64,000 bases of DNA from an uncultured Candidatus Saccharibacteria bacterium (GTDB lineage: Bacteria; Patescibacteriota; Minisyncoccia; Phycocordibacterales; Phycocordibacteraceae): assembly GCA_964507275.1 (NCBI GenBank), contig CAZDPG010000001.1, forward strand, positions 468,577-532,576. The letters are read 5' to 3'. The position numbers were made by a program, and so were the translations under genes. Of this stretch, positions 7,959 to 14,306 are shown one piece after another (within the stretch, counting starts at the first letter, position 1; each line of letters opens with the position of its first letter). The notes under the pieces are model-generated. The model did not search any database and was not told the DNA's origin. It worked only from the letters and a program-made list of their open reading frames with translations.

Positions 7959-9035
7959 TCAAATCTCTTCGAGCTTGCGGAGCGCCAGGCCGACGGCTAC
8001 AGCGAACTCCGGACCGATCTCCTCAAGGACTGGGCGCATGAATGCCGGCGCTTCGGTCTTTACAAAAGGATCCGCGACGCGCACATCGATTGAGAACGTC
8101 TCTTTCGCATAGGCGGCAAGCTCCTTTGTAACGCCGCCACCGCCAGTGAGCACGATCGAAACGACCGATTTCTTATGTGATGTCTCATACTGCATGAGCA
8201 CGCGGCGCGCCTCTGAGAATATCCGCGAGAAGACGAGCTCCGGACTTCCGAGAGGAGCATCCCCATCCCCGAGACCTTTTTCCTTCTTCAGAGCTTCAGC
8301 ACGGGCGAGCGAGACGCCACTCGAAATCGAGATAGCGCGTGTGATGTCCTGACTACCCGTACTGATAGCGTGCGAAAGAGCCACGATTCCGTGCTCGACG
8401 ACATAGGTCTTCGTCGAAGCCGCGCCGATGTCGAGCACCATGACGGGCTTTATCGGTTCATCGACGACCGCGCGTATGGTGCTGAATATCTCAATCTCAA
8501 AGAAGCTTGCATTGAGTCCTGCGCCGGCAGCGACTCTCTGAAGCAGGGCGAGCTCGTCGTTATGGACAGCCACAACAAGCACTTCTACGGTCTTGCGCTC
8601 TTCTTCCTTCTCCGAGGGGTCCATCTTCGGCACGACGAACCAATCGAGCTGAATCTCGCTCATCGGTACCGGGATATACTTCCGCGCCTCGAGCTCGATG
8701 ATGGTCTTCTGCTCTTCTTTATCCTTGCTGTACGGCAGCTCGACGAGAGAAAGGAGCGAACGAGCGAATGGAACGGAGACGCCGCAGCTTGTCGTCGTCA
8801 CTTTCGCTTCGCGCAGAAGATCTGTCAGGGTCTCGGTAACCTGCTCGGCGGAAAGATTCGTGGCTTGTCCCACTTCCCCGCCCCCATACGGACCGAGCGC
8901 AAGCTCTCCATACGTCTCGAGTATCGCCTTGCCTCCCTCCTTGCGCAGCTGCACTACCTTCAAAGAAGAAGAGCCTATATCGACGCCGAGAACGCTCTGT
9001 TCTTTCTTTGCGAATAGAAAATCCAAGAATGCCAT
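7959..9035 (-). CDS. pilM: Type IV pilus assembly protein PilM (actin-like ATPase fold)
   Basis: LGVDIGSSSLKVVQL N-terminal actin-fold motif. Start chosen at MAFLDF, since the ORF-track start at 9083 would overlap comF. Confidence 0.85.
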   Translation of the reverse strand: MAFLDFLFAKKEQSVLGVDIGSSSLKVVQLRKEGGKAILETYGELALGPYGGGEVGQATNLSAEQVTETLTDLLREAKVTTTSCGVSVPFARSLLSLVELPYSKDKEEQKTIIELEARKYIPVPMSEIQLDWFVVPKMDPSEKEEERKTVEVLVVAVHNDELALLQRVAAGAGLNASFFEIEIFSTIRAVVDEPIKPVMVLDIGAASTKTYVVEHGIVALSHAISTGSQDITRAISISSGVSLARAEALKKEKGLGDGDAPLGSPELVFSRIFSEARRVLMQYETSHKKSVVSIVLTGGGGVTKELAAYAKETFSIDVRVADPFVKTEAPAFMRPVLEEIGPEFAVAVGLALRKLEEI

Positions 9036-9049
9036 GTGAGAATAATACC

Positions 9050-9667
9050 ATGTTACGATTTTTCGACTTCCTCTTTCCTCCACGTCAGGATGAGATCACC
9101 TTGCGAGCGGTCTCTGATGACGGGTTCCTTGCACGCACCAATCCACAACTCGTGCCCCACACAGAGCCGGCGACGATCGCTCTCTTCTCGTTTTCAGACG
9201 ACGTAGTGCGTGCGGCAATCCACGAAGCCAAATATCACGGGTCATCGCGTGCCTTTCGCCTCCTTGCGCTCGCGCTCTCTGAATACCTTCGCGACGCCGA
9301 TGATCTAGGACGAGGTACGCTCTATATCGTGCCGATACCGCTCGGGGAGAAGCGGAAGAAAGAACGGGGTCTGAACCAAATCGAGGAAGTGGTACGACGG
9401 TCGCTGTCCGGTGGCTCATCTACATTTTCTTTGGAGACCGACCTCCTGCGACGTACCCGGGAGACGGCTTCGCAGGTCACCCTTCCCCGTACTGAGAGGG
9501 AGGAGAACATGCGCGGAGCCTTTTCTGCGATATTCCCCGCCAACCCTGCGCACACATATATCGTCATCGACGACGTTATCACCACCGGCGCGACGCTCCA
9601 AGCCGCTATCGATGCGCTCCGCGACGCCGGGGCGCATCATATCGTCCCGCTCGCCTTGGCGCATTAA
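9050..9667 (+). CDS. comF: ComF family phosphoribosyltransferase-domain competence protein
   Basis: C-terminal PRTase motif YIVIDDVITTGATL. Divergent from pilM. Start uncertain, 9008 or 9050. Confidence 0.75.
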   Translation: MLRFFDFLFPPRQDEITLRAVSDDGFLARTNPQLVPHTEPATIALFSFSDDVVRAAIHEAKYHGSSRAFRLLALALSEYLRDADDLGRGTLYIVPIPLGEKRKKERGLNQIEEVVRRSLSGGSSTFSLETDLLRRTRETASQVTLPRTEREENMRGAFSAIFPANPAHTYIVIDDVITTGATLQAAIDALRDAGAHHIVPLALAH

Positions 9668-9707
9668 AGAGTTAAAAATGGTCTGTTCGACATGGTAGAA
9701 TGGAGGT

Positions 9708-10709
9708 ATGGCTAAACAGTTGAAAGATAGAAGAGCCGTATTCCCCGCTGGTAAGCAAAAGTTCTTTTTAGAAAGCGTCGGACAAAAGATGACGATCGTG
9801 GACATGGCTCGCATCTGTCACTGCTCCGAACGCACGATTCGCGATTGGCGGCGAGAAAAGTTTTCTATGCCGCTTCCAGCGGTTCATACACTCTCAGCAC
9901 GAACACAGGTTTCAATTCCTAAAAACATTGAGATTAAAGATGCATACGCGCATATCGCAAAAGCAAGCAGGATGGGTGCTGCCGCAACCATTGAGAGATA
10001 TGGTCGCATTCCTCGCGATGAGCAGTACCGTAAAGAGCAGTGGCAAGCCTGGTGGGAATCAGAAGGTAAGTTCAAGAAGAATCCGATTCTTGAATCAAAA
10101 GAAATTGATAAACCAAGACGCAGCGTGGAGCTCGCAGAATTCATCGGAGTCATGATGGGCGATGGAGGCATCAGTACCTATCAGGCTACCATCACACTCC
10201 ATCACGAGGATGACCTGGAATACGCCGCCTTTGTAACAAAACTTATCAAAAGACTCTTTAAGATAACGCCGAGCGTTTATCATTTTCCGAAGAGATCTGT
10301 AAATAACATCGTCGTATCTCGGAAAGAATTGGTTGAGTATTTGTGTGCGCTTGGATTACCTATTGGAAACAAGGTGAAACAGCAACTCAATATCCCCGAA
10401 TGGATAAAGAGAAATCAGAAATTCTCGATTGCCTGCTTACGAGGACTTGTCGATACCGATGGGTGTATTTTCACCCATCGGTATCGTGCGAAAGGCATCT
10501 GGTACGCTTATAAGAAAATTTCTTTCACGAGCGCTTCAGAGCCATTGCGAAAGTCAGTCCACGCCATTCTGCAAGAACTAGGATTTCATCCACGAGTAGC
10601 TACTCACGATGTACGCCTCGATCGGATTGAGGATGTGAAGCGATATTTTGCAATCATCGGCAGCCATAATCCGAAACATTTGAGAAGATACGGAAATACG
10701 CTAGGATAG
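9708..10709 (+). CDS. LAGLIDADG homing-endonuclease-like protein with N-terminal HTH
   Basis: Two LAGLIDADG-type motifs, FIGVMMGDGGIS and LRGLVDTDGCIF. N-terminal 60 aa are HTH-like (MARICHCSERTIRDWRRE). Lower GC than neighbours. Confidence 0.7.
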   Translation: MAKQLKDRRAVFPAGKQKFFLESVGQKMTIVDMARICHCSERTIRDWRREKFSMPLPAVHTLSARTQVSIPKNIEIKDAYAHIAKASRMGAAATIERYGRIPRDEQYRKEQWQAWWESEGKFKKNPILESKEIDKPRRSVELAEFIGVMMGDGGISTYQATITLHHEDDLEYAAFVTKLIKRLFKITPSVYHFPKRSVNNIVVSRKELVEYLCALGLPIGNKVKQQLNIPEWIKRNQKFSIACLRGLVDTDGCIFTHRYRAKGIWYAYKKISFTSASEPLRKSVHAILQELGFHPRVATHDVRLDRIEDVKRYFAIIGSHNPKHLRRYGNTLG

Positions 10710-10716
10710 CCATACG

Positions 10717-10805
10717 GGATGGGTGACTGAGTGGCCGAAAGTACCACACTGCTAACGTGGCAGGGGCGTTAAAACCCCTCGAGGGTTCGAATCCCTCCCC
10801 ATCCG
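10717..10805 (+). tRNA. tRNA-Ser (anticodon GCU)
   Basis: Acceptor GGATGGG/CCCATCC, anticodon loop CUGCUAA, long variable arm, T-loop GGTTCGAATCC, discriminator G. CCA not encoded. Confidence 0.85.
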
Positions 10806-10814
10806 CACATCAAT

Positions 10815-10847
10815 ACAACAGCCGGCGCATGTAGCGCCGGCTGTTGT
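10815..10847. terminator. Stem-loop between convergent tRNA and DUF378 gene (possible bidirectional terminator)
   Basis: Perfect inverted repeat ACAACAGCCGGCGC-ATGT-AGCGCCGGCTGTTGT. Weak U tract. Confidence 0.4.
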
Positions 10848-10876
10848 ATATGTCCGCTAAAGCGCGGAAGGAGTTT

Positions 10877-11199: not shown

Positions 11200-11601
11200 T
11201 TACTCAAACTTAATCTGGAAACCGTACATTCCCATAGAACAGAGCCCTTGCAGGGTGCCATTCGCCTTCTCCGCGGGAATCAGTATCTCTTCCGTGCCGG
11301 ATGAACCGAGGAATTTCTGATACGAGAGGCTCGGAATGACCAAGCTCGCCGAGCAATCGAACGTACCGCTCGTATTCACCCGCAGTACGGTCGGCATACC
11401 AGCCTTCGCCACCACGACGCGCGGCGAGTAGCCACCCTTCGCGGTGATATCGACGATCTGTTGACCATCGACGATGACTGCGGTCGGTATAGCCCCCTCG
11501 ACGTCAGCGTCCTCCGGTCTTGCAGAAACGAGCCAGAATGCCCACCCCACAAGAGCAATACTTATTGCGAACGAGATGAGGATTCGTATGTTCATACGCA
11601 T
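11200..11601 (-). CDS. Secreted beta-sandwich (cupredoxin-like) protein, possible metal-binding
   Basis: Signal peptide. C-terminal GxxQGLCSMGMYGF resembles the cupredoxin Cys/Met ligand region. Co-operonic with csoR and the HMA transporter. Confidence 0.4.
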   Translation of the reverse strand: MRMNIRILISFAISIALVGWAFWLVSARPEDADVEGAIPTAVIVDGQQIVDITAKGGYSPRVVVAKAGMPTVLRVNTSGTFDCSASLVIPSLSYQKFLGSSGTEEILIPAEKANGTLQGLCSMGMYGFQIKFE

Positions 11602-12620
11602 TAGAGATTAAAGAGTGGATTGATAATCCCTGCAGTAGCGAGCGCATTCGCAAGGTTCAGGAGTGCGAGCACGATGACGATGATGCCTGCGGTCTTGAAG
11701 AATATCCCCTTCCACGATTGGTGCGCGATATTAAGCGAGCCGAAGGAAAGAACGGCGAGCATCGGGAGCGTCCCGAGCGCGAAGACGAACATCGTGAGCG
11801 CGCCCTGCATGAAGCTTCCAGTCGAGAGCGCATAGAGCTGCATTGACTGGGTGAATCCGCATGGAAGGAAGAAGGTCCCGATACCAACCAAAAGCGGTGC
11901 GAGATAATGGTCGTGCGTGCTGCCCGCTACGACCCGCTTCGAGAAGCGTGCCGGCATCGTAAGCTGTAATCGCTTCGTGAAATGAAAGACATCGAGCAAG
12001 TTAATGCCGAGGATGAGCATCACGAGCGCGACGATGCCGGCGAGTATTGCATTCGCCGTGAGACCGAGATGTAGCGAGTTCCCTAGCAAGCCGACCAGGC
12101 CGCCGAGCAAGAAGAATCCGCCGATCCGTCCGATATGGAAGAACCCCACCGTCCGCCAGGTACCGCCCTCGCGCGCCGAGCTTGCCGAGAGCGAGAGCAC
12201 CAGTCCGCCAACGATAGCGAGACAAGAGGAAACGGAGGCGATGAGGCCGATGAAGAATGCCGTTCCGTAGCTCACGTCCGAAGACGTAATGAGGTTCGTC
12301 AGTCCGGCCTTCTGCAAGAAGATAAACGCCGCTATGAGCAGGAGCGCGATAGGGAGCGCGTAGGTGAAATCGCCCCATCCGGCATCGTGCGAGCCCTTCT
12401 CCGCCCTGATGACATACCCATGCTCGCTCACCAGCTTCGTGAGCTCTCCCGCGACTTCTTCCGATGAGCCGATGAAGTCCCCCTCCACGGACACTTGCTG
12501 CTTCCCGAACGACACTTCGGCAGTCGCCACTCGCGGATCATCTTTGATAGCCTGTTCTATCCGCAATGCGCACGATGCGCAGTGCATGCCTCGTATGTGA
12601 AAAGTATTCTTTGTTGTCAT
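11601..12620 (-). CDS. Heavy-metal-associated (HMA) domain fused to CcdA/DsbD-family transmembrane thiol-disulfide transporter
   Basis: N-terminal GMHCASCALRIE (GMxCxxC HMA motif). Six or more TM helices, with single Cys in SCLAIV and FLPCGF, typical of DsbD/CcdA. Confidence 0.75.
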   Translation of the reverse strand: MTTKNTFHIRGMHCASCALRIEQAIKDDPRVATAEVSFGKQQVSVEGDFIGSSEEVAGELTKLVSEHGYVIRAEKGSHDAGWGDFTYALPIALLLIAAFIFLQKAGLTNLITSSDVSYGTAFFIGLIASVSSCLAIVGGLVLSLSASSAREGGTWRTVGFFHIGRIGGFFLLGGLVGLLGNSLHLGLTANAILAGIVALVMLILGINLLDVFHFTKRLQLTMPARFSKRVVAGSTHDHYLAPLLVGIGTFFLPCGFTQSMQLYALSTGSFMQGALTMFVFALGTLPMLAVLSFGSLNIAHQSWKGIFFKTAGIIVIVLALLNLANALATAGIINPLFNL

Positions 12621-12622
12621 AG

Positions 12623-12904
12623 CTATTTCCGCTTGAGCTTATACACCTTCAAGACCTCCTGAACCGCTTTCCCTGTCTGACCGGAAGTCATTTGTTTGTG
12701 CACACAACTATTTAAGTGATTCTCGAGGAGGATATCCTCCACGGTCGAGAGTCCCTGCTTAATGGCTGAGGTCTGCGCGATAATGTCGATACAATATGTG
12801 CTCTTCTCAAGCATTGAGACAAGTCCGCGCACTTGCCCTTCGATTATTTTCAATCGCCGCACCAACTTCGACCTCTCCGTATCGGACATATGCGTCATGT
12901 GCAC
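12623..12904 (-). CDS. csoR: CsoR/RcnR-family metal-sensing transcriptional repressor
   Basis: 93 aa, all-helical. The conserved CsoR Cys/His ligand signature is present. Confidence 0.8.
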   Translation of the reverse strand: MHMTHMSDTERSKLVRRLKIIEGQVRGLVSMLEKSTYCIDIIAQTSAIKQGLSTVEDILLENHLNSCVHKQMTSGQTGKAVQEVLKVYKLKRK

Positions 12905-12928: not shown

Positions 12929-13906
12929 TTATTCAAGCTCTGTTGGTAATTCGCTGATGCGTGCTGAAAGCTTCCATGCATTCCCATGCCGGAGCATCCC
13001 CCGATACGACGCAACCGTGGCTTCGCTCGGATTACCACTCATCGCCCGCAGCATCCTCCTCTTCGTACTCGTGCGGAGTACGCGATGGTCAGGAAAATGC
13101 ACCCAGCCGAGAAAATCGATGCCTGAAGTGAGCGTTGCTATGGAGACTTTTTTTGGATGTAGCTCAAGCTTTAGTTTCTCGTGCAAGAAGTCTCGGATGC
13201 GTGGCAGAAGCGAGACAAGCTGATCGCGGTCACGAGAGAGGAAGACGAAATCATCAGCATAGCGGATGTAGTGTCTCGCTTTCAGTGTGTGTTTCGCAAA
13301 TTGATCGAACTCGTTCATATAAATGTTCACGAGGAGCTGGCTTGTGAGGTTACCGAGCGGGAGACCCTTCCCTGTTTCTGTGCTTGAGAAGCTTCCGATG
13401 ATGTTCTTCATGAGCGAGAGAGTACGTTCGTCGGGAATATATGAGTGCAGTATCTCCATGAGTGTTTGCTGGTCAATGGAAGCGAAGAACTTCCGTATGT
13501 CGCATTTGAGTACCCAGCAGATGCGTGTATCGTTCTGCGATACTTTCTGAGCACATGATCGGAATTGGTTCATCGCCCGGTGCGTACCCTTCCCCACGCG
13601 ACAGGAATACGAGTCAGCGACAAAGGTACGGTCGAAGAATGGGTAGAGCTGGCGATAGAGGGCATGGTGCACAAGCCGGTCGCGGACTGAGGCCTTGTGA
13701 ATGTCGCGCGGCTTCGGGTCCGCAATCTTGAAGTGGTGGTAGCCGCCGTGCTGATAGGTGCCAATGGCGAGGTCGTGATGGAGCACGAGGATGTGGTGCA
13801 TTAGATGTCGACCGAACTCCTGCACGTCAGCACGCTTCTTCTTTCCTCTTACGAATTCCTGCCACGCATCGAGAAGATTTTCGATTGAGATGATATCCTC
13901 ATACAC
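12929..13906 (-). CDS. Diversity-generating retroelement reverse transcriptase
   Basis: 325 aa. Closely parallels Bordetella phage bRT: IENLLDAW, PKPR...DRLVHHAL, GLPLGNLTSQLL, RYADDFVFL (YxDD), GIDFLGW. Starts at a GTG codon. Confidence 0.92.
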   Translation of the reverse strand: MYEDIISIENLLDAWQEFVRGKKKRADVQEFGRHLMHHILVLHHDLAIGTYQHGGYHHFKIADPKPRDIHKASVRDRLVHHALYRQLYPFFDRTFVADSYSCRVGKGTHRAMNQFRSCAQKVSQNDTRICWVLKCDIRKFFASIDQQTLMEILHSYIPDERTLSLMKNIIGSFSSTETGKGLPLGNLTSQLLVNIYMNEFDQFAKHTLKARHYIRYADDFVFLSRDRDQLVSLLPRIRDFLHEKLKLELHPKKVSIATLTSGIDFLGWVHFPDHRVLRTSTKRRMLRAMSGNPSEATVASYRGMLRHGNAWKLSARISELPTELE

Positions 13907-13958
13907 AAGACTCCATGAGCAACCCCCCCCCCGACAGTTTCTTCCGGTACTTGAGAGA

Positions 13959-14306
13959 TTGAAAAGTGCATACCTGCTTTGGTATGGATATTATCAGACA
14001 CTCCCTAAGACGCATCGCCACACACTCGGCGGAAGAGTGGACACGCTTTTTGTCGAAGTAATCGAGGCGATAGCTTCAGCGACATTTCTCTCCCGTAGCG
14101 AGAAGCAGCCCTGGGTGCGGCTCGCTATCCGAAAACTCGACACGCTGAAAGTACTGCTTCTCGTGCTCTGGGAGACCAAATCTCTTGAGACGAAAAAATA
14201 CGCCGCACTTTCGCTCCCGCTTGAAGAGGTTGGCAAAATGCTCGGCGGATGGAATGGACAGCTCACGAAGCAAAACTCAACCCCGCTAGTGCGGGGCGAA
14301 GAGTGA
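13959..14306 (+). CDS. avd: DGR accessory variability determinant (Avd, four-helix-bundle)
   Basis: C-terminal LEEVGKMLGGW matches the bAvd AEVGRILGSW motif, and LPKTHRHTLGGR matches IPRKHGVAR. Opposite strand to the RT. Start ambiguous: TTG at 13959, or ATG at 13915, which is out of frame unless the C10 tract 13923-13932 becomes C11. Confidence 0.7.
   Translation: MKSAYLLWYGYYQTLPKTHRHTLGGRVDTLFVEVIEAIASATFLSRSEKQPWVRLAIRKLDTLKVLLLVLWETKSLETKKYAALSLPLEEVGKMLGGWNGQLTKQNSTPLVRGEE

Follow-up and report, generated by a model that had tools for sequence, protein, structure and literature searches.

The 64,000-nt stretch of DNA analyzed here (the window; contig CAZDPG010000001.1 of an uncultured Candidatus Saccharibacteria bacterium, positions 468,577 to 532,576) contains a free-standing gene for a LAGLIDADG homing endonuclease with a helix-turn-helix (HTH) domain, at positions 9708..10709 on the + strand (333 aa), identified from its open reading frame (ORF), Pfam matches, a structure model and an alignment. 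We consider it very probable that this is a homing endonuclease gene (HEG) inserted between a comF-like gene and tRNA-Ser(GCU), and that it belongs to a family specialized on tRNA-Ser genes; it is probably active and specific for the 5' flank of tRNA-Ser(GCU). Based on blastn comparison with three related loci (L010, L011 and L019), the whole inserted element covers 9669..10716 (+, ~1,048 bp), in place of which these collinear relatives have a spacer of 21-26 nt. Its left flank is the comF-like phosphoribosyltransferase gene (9008..9667, +; Pfam Pribosyltran, E=1.4e-5; TAA stop at 9665-9667), and its right-hand neighbor is tRNA-Ser(GCU) (+; 10717-10806 according to ARAGORN, 10717-10805 according to Rfam), the probable target or homology arm. 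A preliminary description made from the letters of the window had correctly placed a stand-alone gene against the tRNA, although the spacer after the LAGLIDADG stop is 7 nt (ccatacg, 10710-10716) rather than 8, and the end coordinate it gave, 10805, takes in the tRNA itself.

To sample without bias toward carriers, we scanned one genome per species (GTDB representatives) with an alignment of PilM, the product of a gene close to comF. This gave 80 loci whose PilM shares 64-85% identity with that of the window; 66 of them keep the comF 3' end and tRNA-Ser(GCU) and form the related-species set. Sites were empty in ~40 of these 66 species, with tRNA-Ser(GCU) following comF at a distance of <=70 nt and no LAGLIDADG gene between them; the spacer was mostly 21-22 nt long and conserved in sequence (TAA-ATTTGATAYTGTGG...). 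In a further ~20 species, likewise without a LAGLIDADG gene, the insert was longer or of another kind, or the tRNA was inverted. Only four species had an intact gene (L015, L016, L023 and L036), while L059 had a 5'-truncated copy without the N-terminal domain and L063 a 196-nt internal-deletion remnant in which the promoter and start codon of the element are fused to the final 44 codons; both decayed copies retain the 3' end of the element. Overall, the gene is missing from ~90% of close species, which retain comF, pilM and the tRNA. When the window was aligned with the empty loci L010, L011 and L019, homology extended up to position 9668, resumed at 10717-10723 and ran on through the downstream genes. 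Carriers are scattered among empty loci in the PilM tree, and the window's own sister species (L010) is empty. The element is very probably a mobile insertion; it is polymorphic for presence and absence at one defined site, and decayed copies exist alongside intact ones, as in a cycle of invasion, degeneration and loss. Empty-site alleles, which the preliminary description had proposed to look for, are therefore present in the closest relatives.

The family to which the element belongs is large: a word-indexed search returned 1,665 matches, and an exhaustive profile search with a threshold of E<=1e-30 yielded no fewer than 605 clusters (50% identity), almost all of them with proteins of 320-350 aa. 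Using a LAGLIDADG alignment, we scanned metagenome contigs and recovered 80 loci (46-100% identity), including 76 with enough downstream sequence to evaluate. In 73 of the 76, a tRNA-Ser(GCT) gene (anticodon GCU) was found on the same strand 0-33 nt past the stop, and in the other three it overlapped the end of the ORF, so that 76/76 copies are linked to this tRNA, a tighter association than could be seen from the window; the linkage was also present in L001-L009. The upstream neighbor was variable (comF, an opposite-strand tRNA-Arg(GCG), tRNA-Ser(UGA) and others), meaning that linkage to tRNA-Ser is conserved but linkage to comF is not. One genome contained two copies, neither with comF or pilM nearby and each followed by its own tRNA-Ser(GCU), and together with the 76 loci it places the same insertion site in independent genomic contexts. 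Among distant members, P0219 has tRNA-Ser(UGA) downstream, P0194 has tRNA-Ser(GCU) downstream, cut off by the contig end, and P0282 (433 aa) has a tRNA-Ser(GCU) 68 nt away on the other strand. Every copy checked thus lies next to a tRNA-Ser gene, on which the family specializes, and copies of its main clade are always directly upstream of tRNA-Ser(GCU). Because the tRNA-Ser gene is the sole sequence common to all contexts, it is likely to serve as the recognition target or as a homology anchor.

An earlier reading of the gene as a long-conserved core gene of the host came from the first six homologous loci, all of which had the order comF, LAGLIDADG, tRNA-Ser(GCU), and was rejected on the basis of the pilM-anchored sample. 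The early synteny was misleading because those loci had been fetched via the LAGLIDADG protein, which biased the sample to carriers.

The adjacent tRNA had led the preliminary description to invoke a classical integration hotspot, a rationale that does not hold here, since the 3' end of the tRNA gene is what integrase-type elements use and the element in the window sits on the 5' flank. We therefore regard it as highly improbable, more so than any other explanation weighed here, that the gene is cargo of an integrase-type genomic island or prophage with the tRNA-Ser gene as its attachment site. That tRNA genes are classical attachment sites, and that integrase or recombinase genes occur a few kilobases downstream of the tRNA at L003 and L008, speak for such an origin, but the indel is only ~1.05 kb and holds one ORF, an endonuclease gene, without an integrase and without a repeat of the tRNA 3' end, and the genes downstream of the tRNA are syntenic with those of empty-site relatives.

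The protein has the features of a single-chain, two-domain LAGLIDADG enzyme, as proposed from its two motifs in the preliminary description. It matched Pfam LAGLIDADG_3 (PF14528) with 39.4 bits against a cut-off of 22.5, and the motifs are FIGVMMGDGGIS (10140..10175, +; aa 145-156), with the catalytic segment GDGG and catalytic Asp152, and LRGLVDTDGCIF (10437..10472, +; aa 244-255), with DTDG and catalytic Asp251. An AlphaFold2 model built from 29 homologs had a mean predicted local distance difference test score (pLDDT) of 88.5, with values >90 across aa 10-70, and showed aa 140-330 as a compact single-chain double LAGLIDADG domain. This pseudo-dimeric alpha-beta-beta-alpha-beta-beta-alpha fold was matched by Foldseek with a probability of 1.00 to I-Tsp061I, PI-PfuI, I-DmoI and I-AniI; the top match in the PDB was I-Tsp061I (2dch; template modeling (TM) score of 0.75 normalized to the target over 201 columns), followed by intein homing endonucleases and I-DmoI.

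The part outside the core is N-terminal and comprises ~125-130 aa, so the region of ~60 aa originally described as HTH-like was rightly characterized but underestimated in size. The HTH domain itself is XRE/Cro-type according to AlphaFold2 and Foldseek (9729..9905, +; ~aa 8-66) and is followed by a two-helix linker (aa 81-118). Modeled separately, aa 1-128 (pLDDT 84.6) formed a five-helix XRE/Cro-type HTH and then two long helices. Pfam HTH models matched aa 24-52 weakly, below cut-off, and the domain superposed on SinR, DdrO, C.Esp1396I and P22 c2 with root-mean-square deviations of 2.1-2.5 A over ~56 residues but weak Foldseek E-values (0.05-0.2); the XRE assignment is thus a modeled one, based on good local superposition and not on significance.

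Asp152 and Asp251 were invariant in the 29-homolog alignment (50-73% identity), and both GDG[GSC] and D[TS]DG were present in 88/88 full-length copies, none of which had internal stops; the catalytic-residue check put forward in the preliminary description thus found both residues retained. Because of the fold match, the invariant aspartates and the intact motifs, the 333-aa protein looks like an active endonuclease and not a maturase-like or WhiA-like derivative. The gene is also free-standing. An Rfam scan of the window identified only the tRNA; the protein has no Hint/intein domain, and its NCBIfam intein matches spanned the endonuclease core only and were far below cut-off. With its own start codon and a putative promoter, the ORF does not class as intron- or intein-encoded.

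The combination of an HTH and a LAGLIDADG scaffold recalls WhiA, which is among the structural matches (8dy9_I), and raises the alternative, also named in the preliminary description, of a domesticated DNA-binding protein that has lost its selfish role and regulates a host locus such as tRNA-Ser or the comF/pilus-competence genes. Strong sequence conservation, a constant length over hundreds of clusters and the frequent adjacency of comF and pilM are compatible with this idea. We nonetheless find it very unlikely, since the gene is missing from ~90% of the closest species, although comF, pilM and the tRNA are kept there, its carriers are scattered, its catalytic residues are kept, unlike those of WhiA, degenerate copies exist, and it is the tRNA-Ser linkage rather than the comF linkage that is conserved. 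The other half of that early suggestion, a selfish insertion, is strongly supported by the empty sites in the closest relatives, the decayed copies, the aspartate pair in 88/88 copies and the position of the gene outside any intron or intein. Syntenic orthologs of flank-like composition, or lost catalytic residues, had been named as signs of an ancient regulator; syntenic homologs do occur, but they are patchy, AT-shifted and, to all appearances, catalytically intact.

The lower GC content noted in the preliminary description is real (0.455 for the gene versus 0.55 for its flanks), as is a lower GC content at third codon positions (0.46 versus 0.58-0.72 in neighboring genes). The same AT shift relative to the host, ~6 points of GC, was found in 56/58 homologous loci, and for this reason the AT-richer composition is a family trait and not peculiar to the window genome.

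Evidence on movement comes from the tRNA that accompanies the element. At the syntenic position, sister species differ clearly in their tRNA-Ser(GCU) alleles, which form a mosaic, and L010, the sister species of the window, does not share the window's allele. Seven of the sampled genomes, spread across the PilM tree, had the allele starting GGATGGGTGACTGAG, and it was associated with the HEG or a remnant in 5/7 cases, compared to 2/60 for other alleles (Fisher p=4e-5, uncorrected for phylogeny). That the tRNA allele tracks the element and not the host suggests co-conversion of flanking DNA during homing. Divergence of the element is also not proportional to that of the host: LAGLIDADG identity was 65-68% where PilM identity was 82-83%, but still ~50% where PilM identity was 27-30%.

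Promoter-like motifs were found at both ends of the element. At the 5' end, a promoter scan predicted a promoter belonging to the element itself (9672..9701, +), with TTAAAA, 18 nt and the extended -10 TGgTAGAAT (TG at 9693-9694, hexamer at 9696-9701), which ends 6 nt 5' of the ATG. The arrangement 'TGnTAtAAT GGAGat ATG' was conserved in 81 elements, with conservation ending at -16. With this 6-nt spacing, transcription would be expected to begin at the A of the ATG, which suggests that the mRNA of the element is leaderless. In one subclade (L103, L113, L123, L136, L140, L149, L153, L155, L156 and L166), ATA or GTA replaces the ATG after TATAAT-GGAGAT, and the next in-frame ATG is 18-21 nt on; translation of a leaderless mRNA may begin at a non-canonical codon here, or the protein could be six or seven residues shorter.

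At the 3' end, the scan predicted a sigma70-like promoter for the tRNA within the end of the endonuclease gene (10680..10707, +; TTGAGA-16-TAGGAT), whose -10 TAGGAT overlaps the stop codon and lies 9 nt before the tRNA. Across the family, the codons for the conserved C-terminal KHL(K/R)RY (KHLRRY in the window) read AAACATTTGAAAAGATAC and include a -35-like TTGAAA or TTGAGA, and a -10-like TAnnnT occurs 16-18 nt past this box, at the stop codon or immediately 3' of it, with 8-15 nt left to the tRNA. This embedded arrangement was present in 54/77 distinct elements, compared with 0.28 expected from shuffles. The insertion cuts the tRNA off from its native upstream region, and the element carries a putative promoter for it. 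Similarly, free-standing HEGs of phage T4 have embedded promoters for downstream essential genes, which have been argued to favor their retention (PMC2988022).

Several results weigh against an active HEG that homes to tRNA-Ser genes. Pairwise LAGLIDADG and PilM identities are correlated (Pearson 0.86) and the GC content of the element tracks that of its host (r=0.84), so that much of its history must have been vertical or among close relatives. We found no clear case of long-range transfer, and a scan of viral contigs from IMG/VR returned no family member, and thus no vector, but only distant LAGLIDADG cores (22-37% identity). The closest non-identical pairs in the family share about 70% protein identity, at which synonymous sites are saturated. 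No near-identical pair of occupied and empty sites within one population was recovered. A comparison of occupied with empty junctions, and of the tRNA alleles, did not map the recognition sequence, as there are several tRNA alleles and the junctions are too diverged; occupied sites themselves carry several different alleles, and no single 'immune' allele can be named. In addition, the allele association lacks the phylogenetic correction mentioned above, and the promoter motifs are consensus matches only, with a number within the window alone that is not above chance.

Some of these points would be accounted for by a relic that entered the ancestor of this Paceibacteria clade once, was inherited vertically with lineage-wise loss, and is now kept for the tRNA promoter at its 3' end and not for homing. 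The correlated identities, the dependence of GC on the host, the embedded putative promoter, the retention of the 3' end in both decayed copies and the missing vector all favor such a history, which we consider unlikely but the strongest of the competitors. The need for a promoter would keep only ~40 bp, and not a 333-codon ORF with both catalytic aspartates in 88/88 copies; many independent deletions would not recreate the one conserved 21-22 nt spacer seen at empty sites; and the relic does not explain why, over the host tree, tRNA alleles go with the element, or why copies stand beside tRNA-Ser(GCU) in unrelated contexts, twice in one genome. A homing element inserted at tRNA-Ser genes remains our preferred explanation, with the proviso that it seems to spread mostly among related genomes and that long vertical stretches are likely.

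Based on these sequence comparisons, we propose that homing could proceed in four steps. First, the gene would be transcribed from its own extended -10 promoter into an mRNA that is probably leaderless, judging from the conserved 6-nt spacing. Second, the product would unite an XRE-type HTH, a helical linker and an I-DmoI/I-Tsp061I-like single-chain LAGLIDADG core in one protein, which would recognize HEG-less alleles and cut them within the 5' part of the tRNA-Ser(GCU) gene or beside it. Third, repair off the HEG-bearing copy would import the HEG and, along with it, the 5' part or more of the donor tRNA allele, a step we infer from the distribution of tRNA alleles, which goes with the element and not with the host. 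Fourth, the last codons of the element would supply a -35/-10 promoter to the tRNA, making clean loss costly, which fits both decayed copies keeping their 3' end. Enzymatic activity, the target sequence and actual transfer are thus predictions of this scheme.

More tentatively, and in our view less likely than not, the LAGLIDADG family on chromosomes of the candidate phyla radiation (CPR) may be a natural gene drive on an essential tRNA gene, one in which the tRNA-Ser gene itself would be recognized, the recipient allele would be replaced on homing, the element would have turned into the promoter of the tRNA and so be hard to lose, and subfamilies would have been retargeted from GCU to UGA or to the other flank. 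The XRE-type HTH could in addition double as an autorepressor of the leaderless HEG transcript. If so, the striking differences in tRNA-Ser(GCU) alleles between sister species would be the work of a selfish element.

The interval between comF and tRNA-Ser(GCU) is also variable in species without the element. Using a hidden Markov model of the family and six-frame translations, we searched the other enlarged gaps of 130-870 nt (L024, L028, L030, L034, L038, L043, L045 and L081) for decayed copies and found none; the inserts in these gaps are unrelated to the LAGLIDADG element. In L024 (362 nt), the gap contains an 84-aa ORF with a GIY-YIG domain (Pfam E=1.5e-15), and in L030 (439 nt) a 117-aa ORF without a Pfam match, whose CxxC...HH...CxxC spacing is reminiscent of HNH. 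The gaps of L028, L043 and L045 (446-470 nt) each contain an opposite-strand ORF of ~100 aa, homologous among the three. The 5' flank of tRNA-Ser(GCU) may therefore be a general landing site for small nuclease genes.

Elsewhere in the window's clade the tRNA-Ser(GCU) locus has been repeatedly rearranged. Next to comF, the tRNA is inverted and converges on comF in L012, L013, L058, L075 and L086 (and in L022, L035 and L077), sometimes 0-8 nt from the comF stop. Six assemblies (L188, L189, L090, L099, L141 and L154) break within or right after the tRNA-Ser 3' of the gene, which is consistent with allelic heterogeneity of the tRNA in the sampled populations.

Upstream of the LAGLIDADG gene, the window contains a type IV pilus pilM-N-O-B cluster divergent from the comF-like gene, which includes pilM (7959-9083, -; PilM_2, E=5e-39). 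Judging from the neighboring genes and from homologs, the organism belongs to the Paceibacteria/Parcubacteria of the CPR. Directly 3' of the tRNA is a perfect 15-bp inverted repeat with a 5-nt loop and no T-run (TACAACAGCCGGCGC / GCGCCGGCTGTTGTA; 10814..10848, +), a possible terminator candidate that was not called in a terminator scan of the window. Right after the tRNA follows a copper/metal-handling cluster (11200-12904, -), comprising a cupredoxin-like protein, an HMA-DsbD_2 membrane protein and a CsoR-type repressor, with synteny kept in the empty-site relatives L010 and L019. Further downstream, a reverse transcriptase gene (12929-13906, -; Pfam RVT_1, E=1e-25) overlaps head-to-head with a gene for a bAvd-like four-helix-bundle protein (13791-14306, +; E=1e-10), and the pair (12929-14306) looks like a diversity-generating retroelement or a related reverse transcriptase system.

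These results describe a large conserved family tied to one target class, tRNA-Ser genes, in an uncultivated bacterial radiation. With many occupied, empty and decayed alleles ready for comparison, it offers a natural system for intronless homing in cellular genomes, and an instance of a selfish gene that would have taken charge of transcribing an essential tRNA and seems to carry tRNA alleles with it from one lineage to another. The meganuclease architecture is new (XRE-HTH, linker and compact single-chain LAGLIDADG core) and comes with natural specificity variants, which may make it useful for engineering. For annotators, 'LAGLIDADG family homing endonuclease' matches of this kind in Paceibacteria metagenome-assembled genomes are not rRNA-intron fragments.

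Finally, we compared the element to known systems. The free-standing homing endonucleases of phages, which are of the GIY-YIG and HNH types, are well studied, while LAGLIDADG enzymes are known mostly from introns and inteins. The literature we searched contained no description of the family. The best structural matches, I-Tsp061I (PDB 2dch) and I-DmoI (TM 0.75 and 0.63-0.69, respectively, normalized to the target), resemble the window protein in their compact single-chain two-domain fold with one acidic residue per motif, but sequence similarity is weak; both are archaeal, reside inside rRNA introns and have no extra DNA-binding domain, whereas the window protein is free-standing, has its own predicted promoter and adds an XRE-type HTH and linker of ~130 aa. 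WhiA (DUF199), a regulator on a degenerate LAGLIDADG scaffold, likewise combines LAGLIDADG and HTH, but it is a conserved core gene product with a C-terminal HTH and lost catalytic residues, compared to the N-terminal HTH, invariant catalytic aspartates and patchy distribution found here.

Within the CPR, LAGLIDADG enzymes of rRNA insertions and group I introns belong to the same radiation and nuclease family and are likewise interpreted as spreading by target-specific homing (PMC11270868), but they are found within 16S and 23S rRNA genes, in contrast to the intergenic position of the window element beside tRNA-Ser; the words 'tRNA', 'free-standing' and 'helix-turn-helix' do not occur in that study. 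The seg and mob genes of phage T4 are, like the window element, intergenic HEGs without intron or intein, and are inherited with co-conversion of flanking markers; SegB, encoded within the tRNA gene cluster, has a tRNA intergenic region as its target, and segG has promoters of gene 32 embedded in the HEG, favoring retention (PMC2988022). The T4 enzymes are GIY-YIG or HNH proteins in phage genomes, whereas the window enzyme is a LAGLIDADG protein on a cellular chromosome with a family-wide restriction to tRNA-Ser. What is new is thus a chromosomal free-standing LAGLIDADG enzyme with an XRE-HTH, restricted throughout its family to tRNA-Ser genes and carrying an embedded putative tRNA promoter; its fold matches that of archaeal intron endonucleases, and by analogy its lifestyle would match the 'intronless homing' of phages, as in SegB and others.

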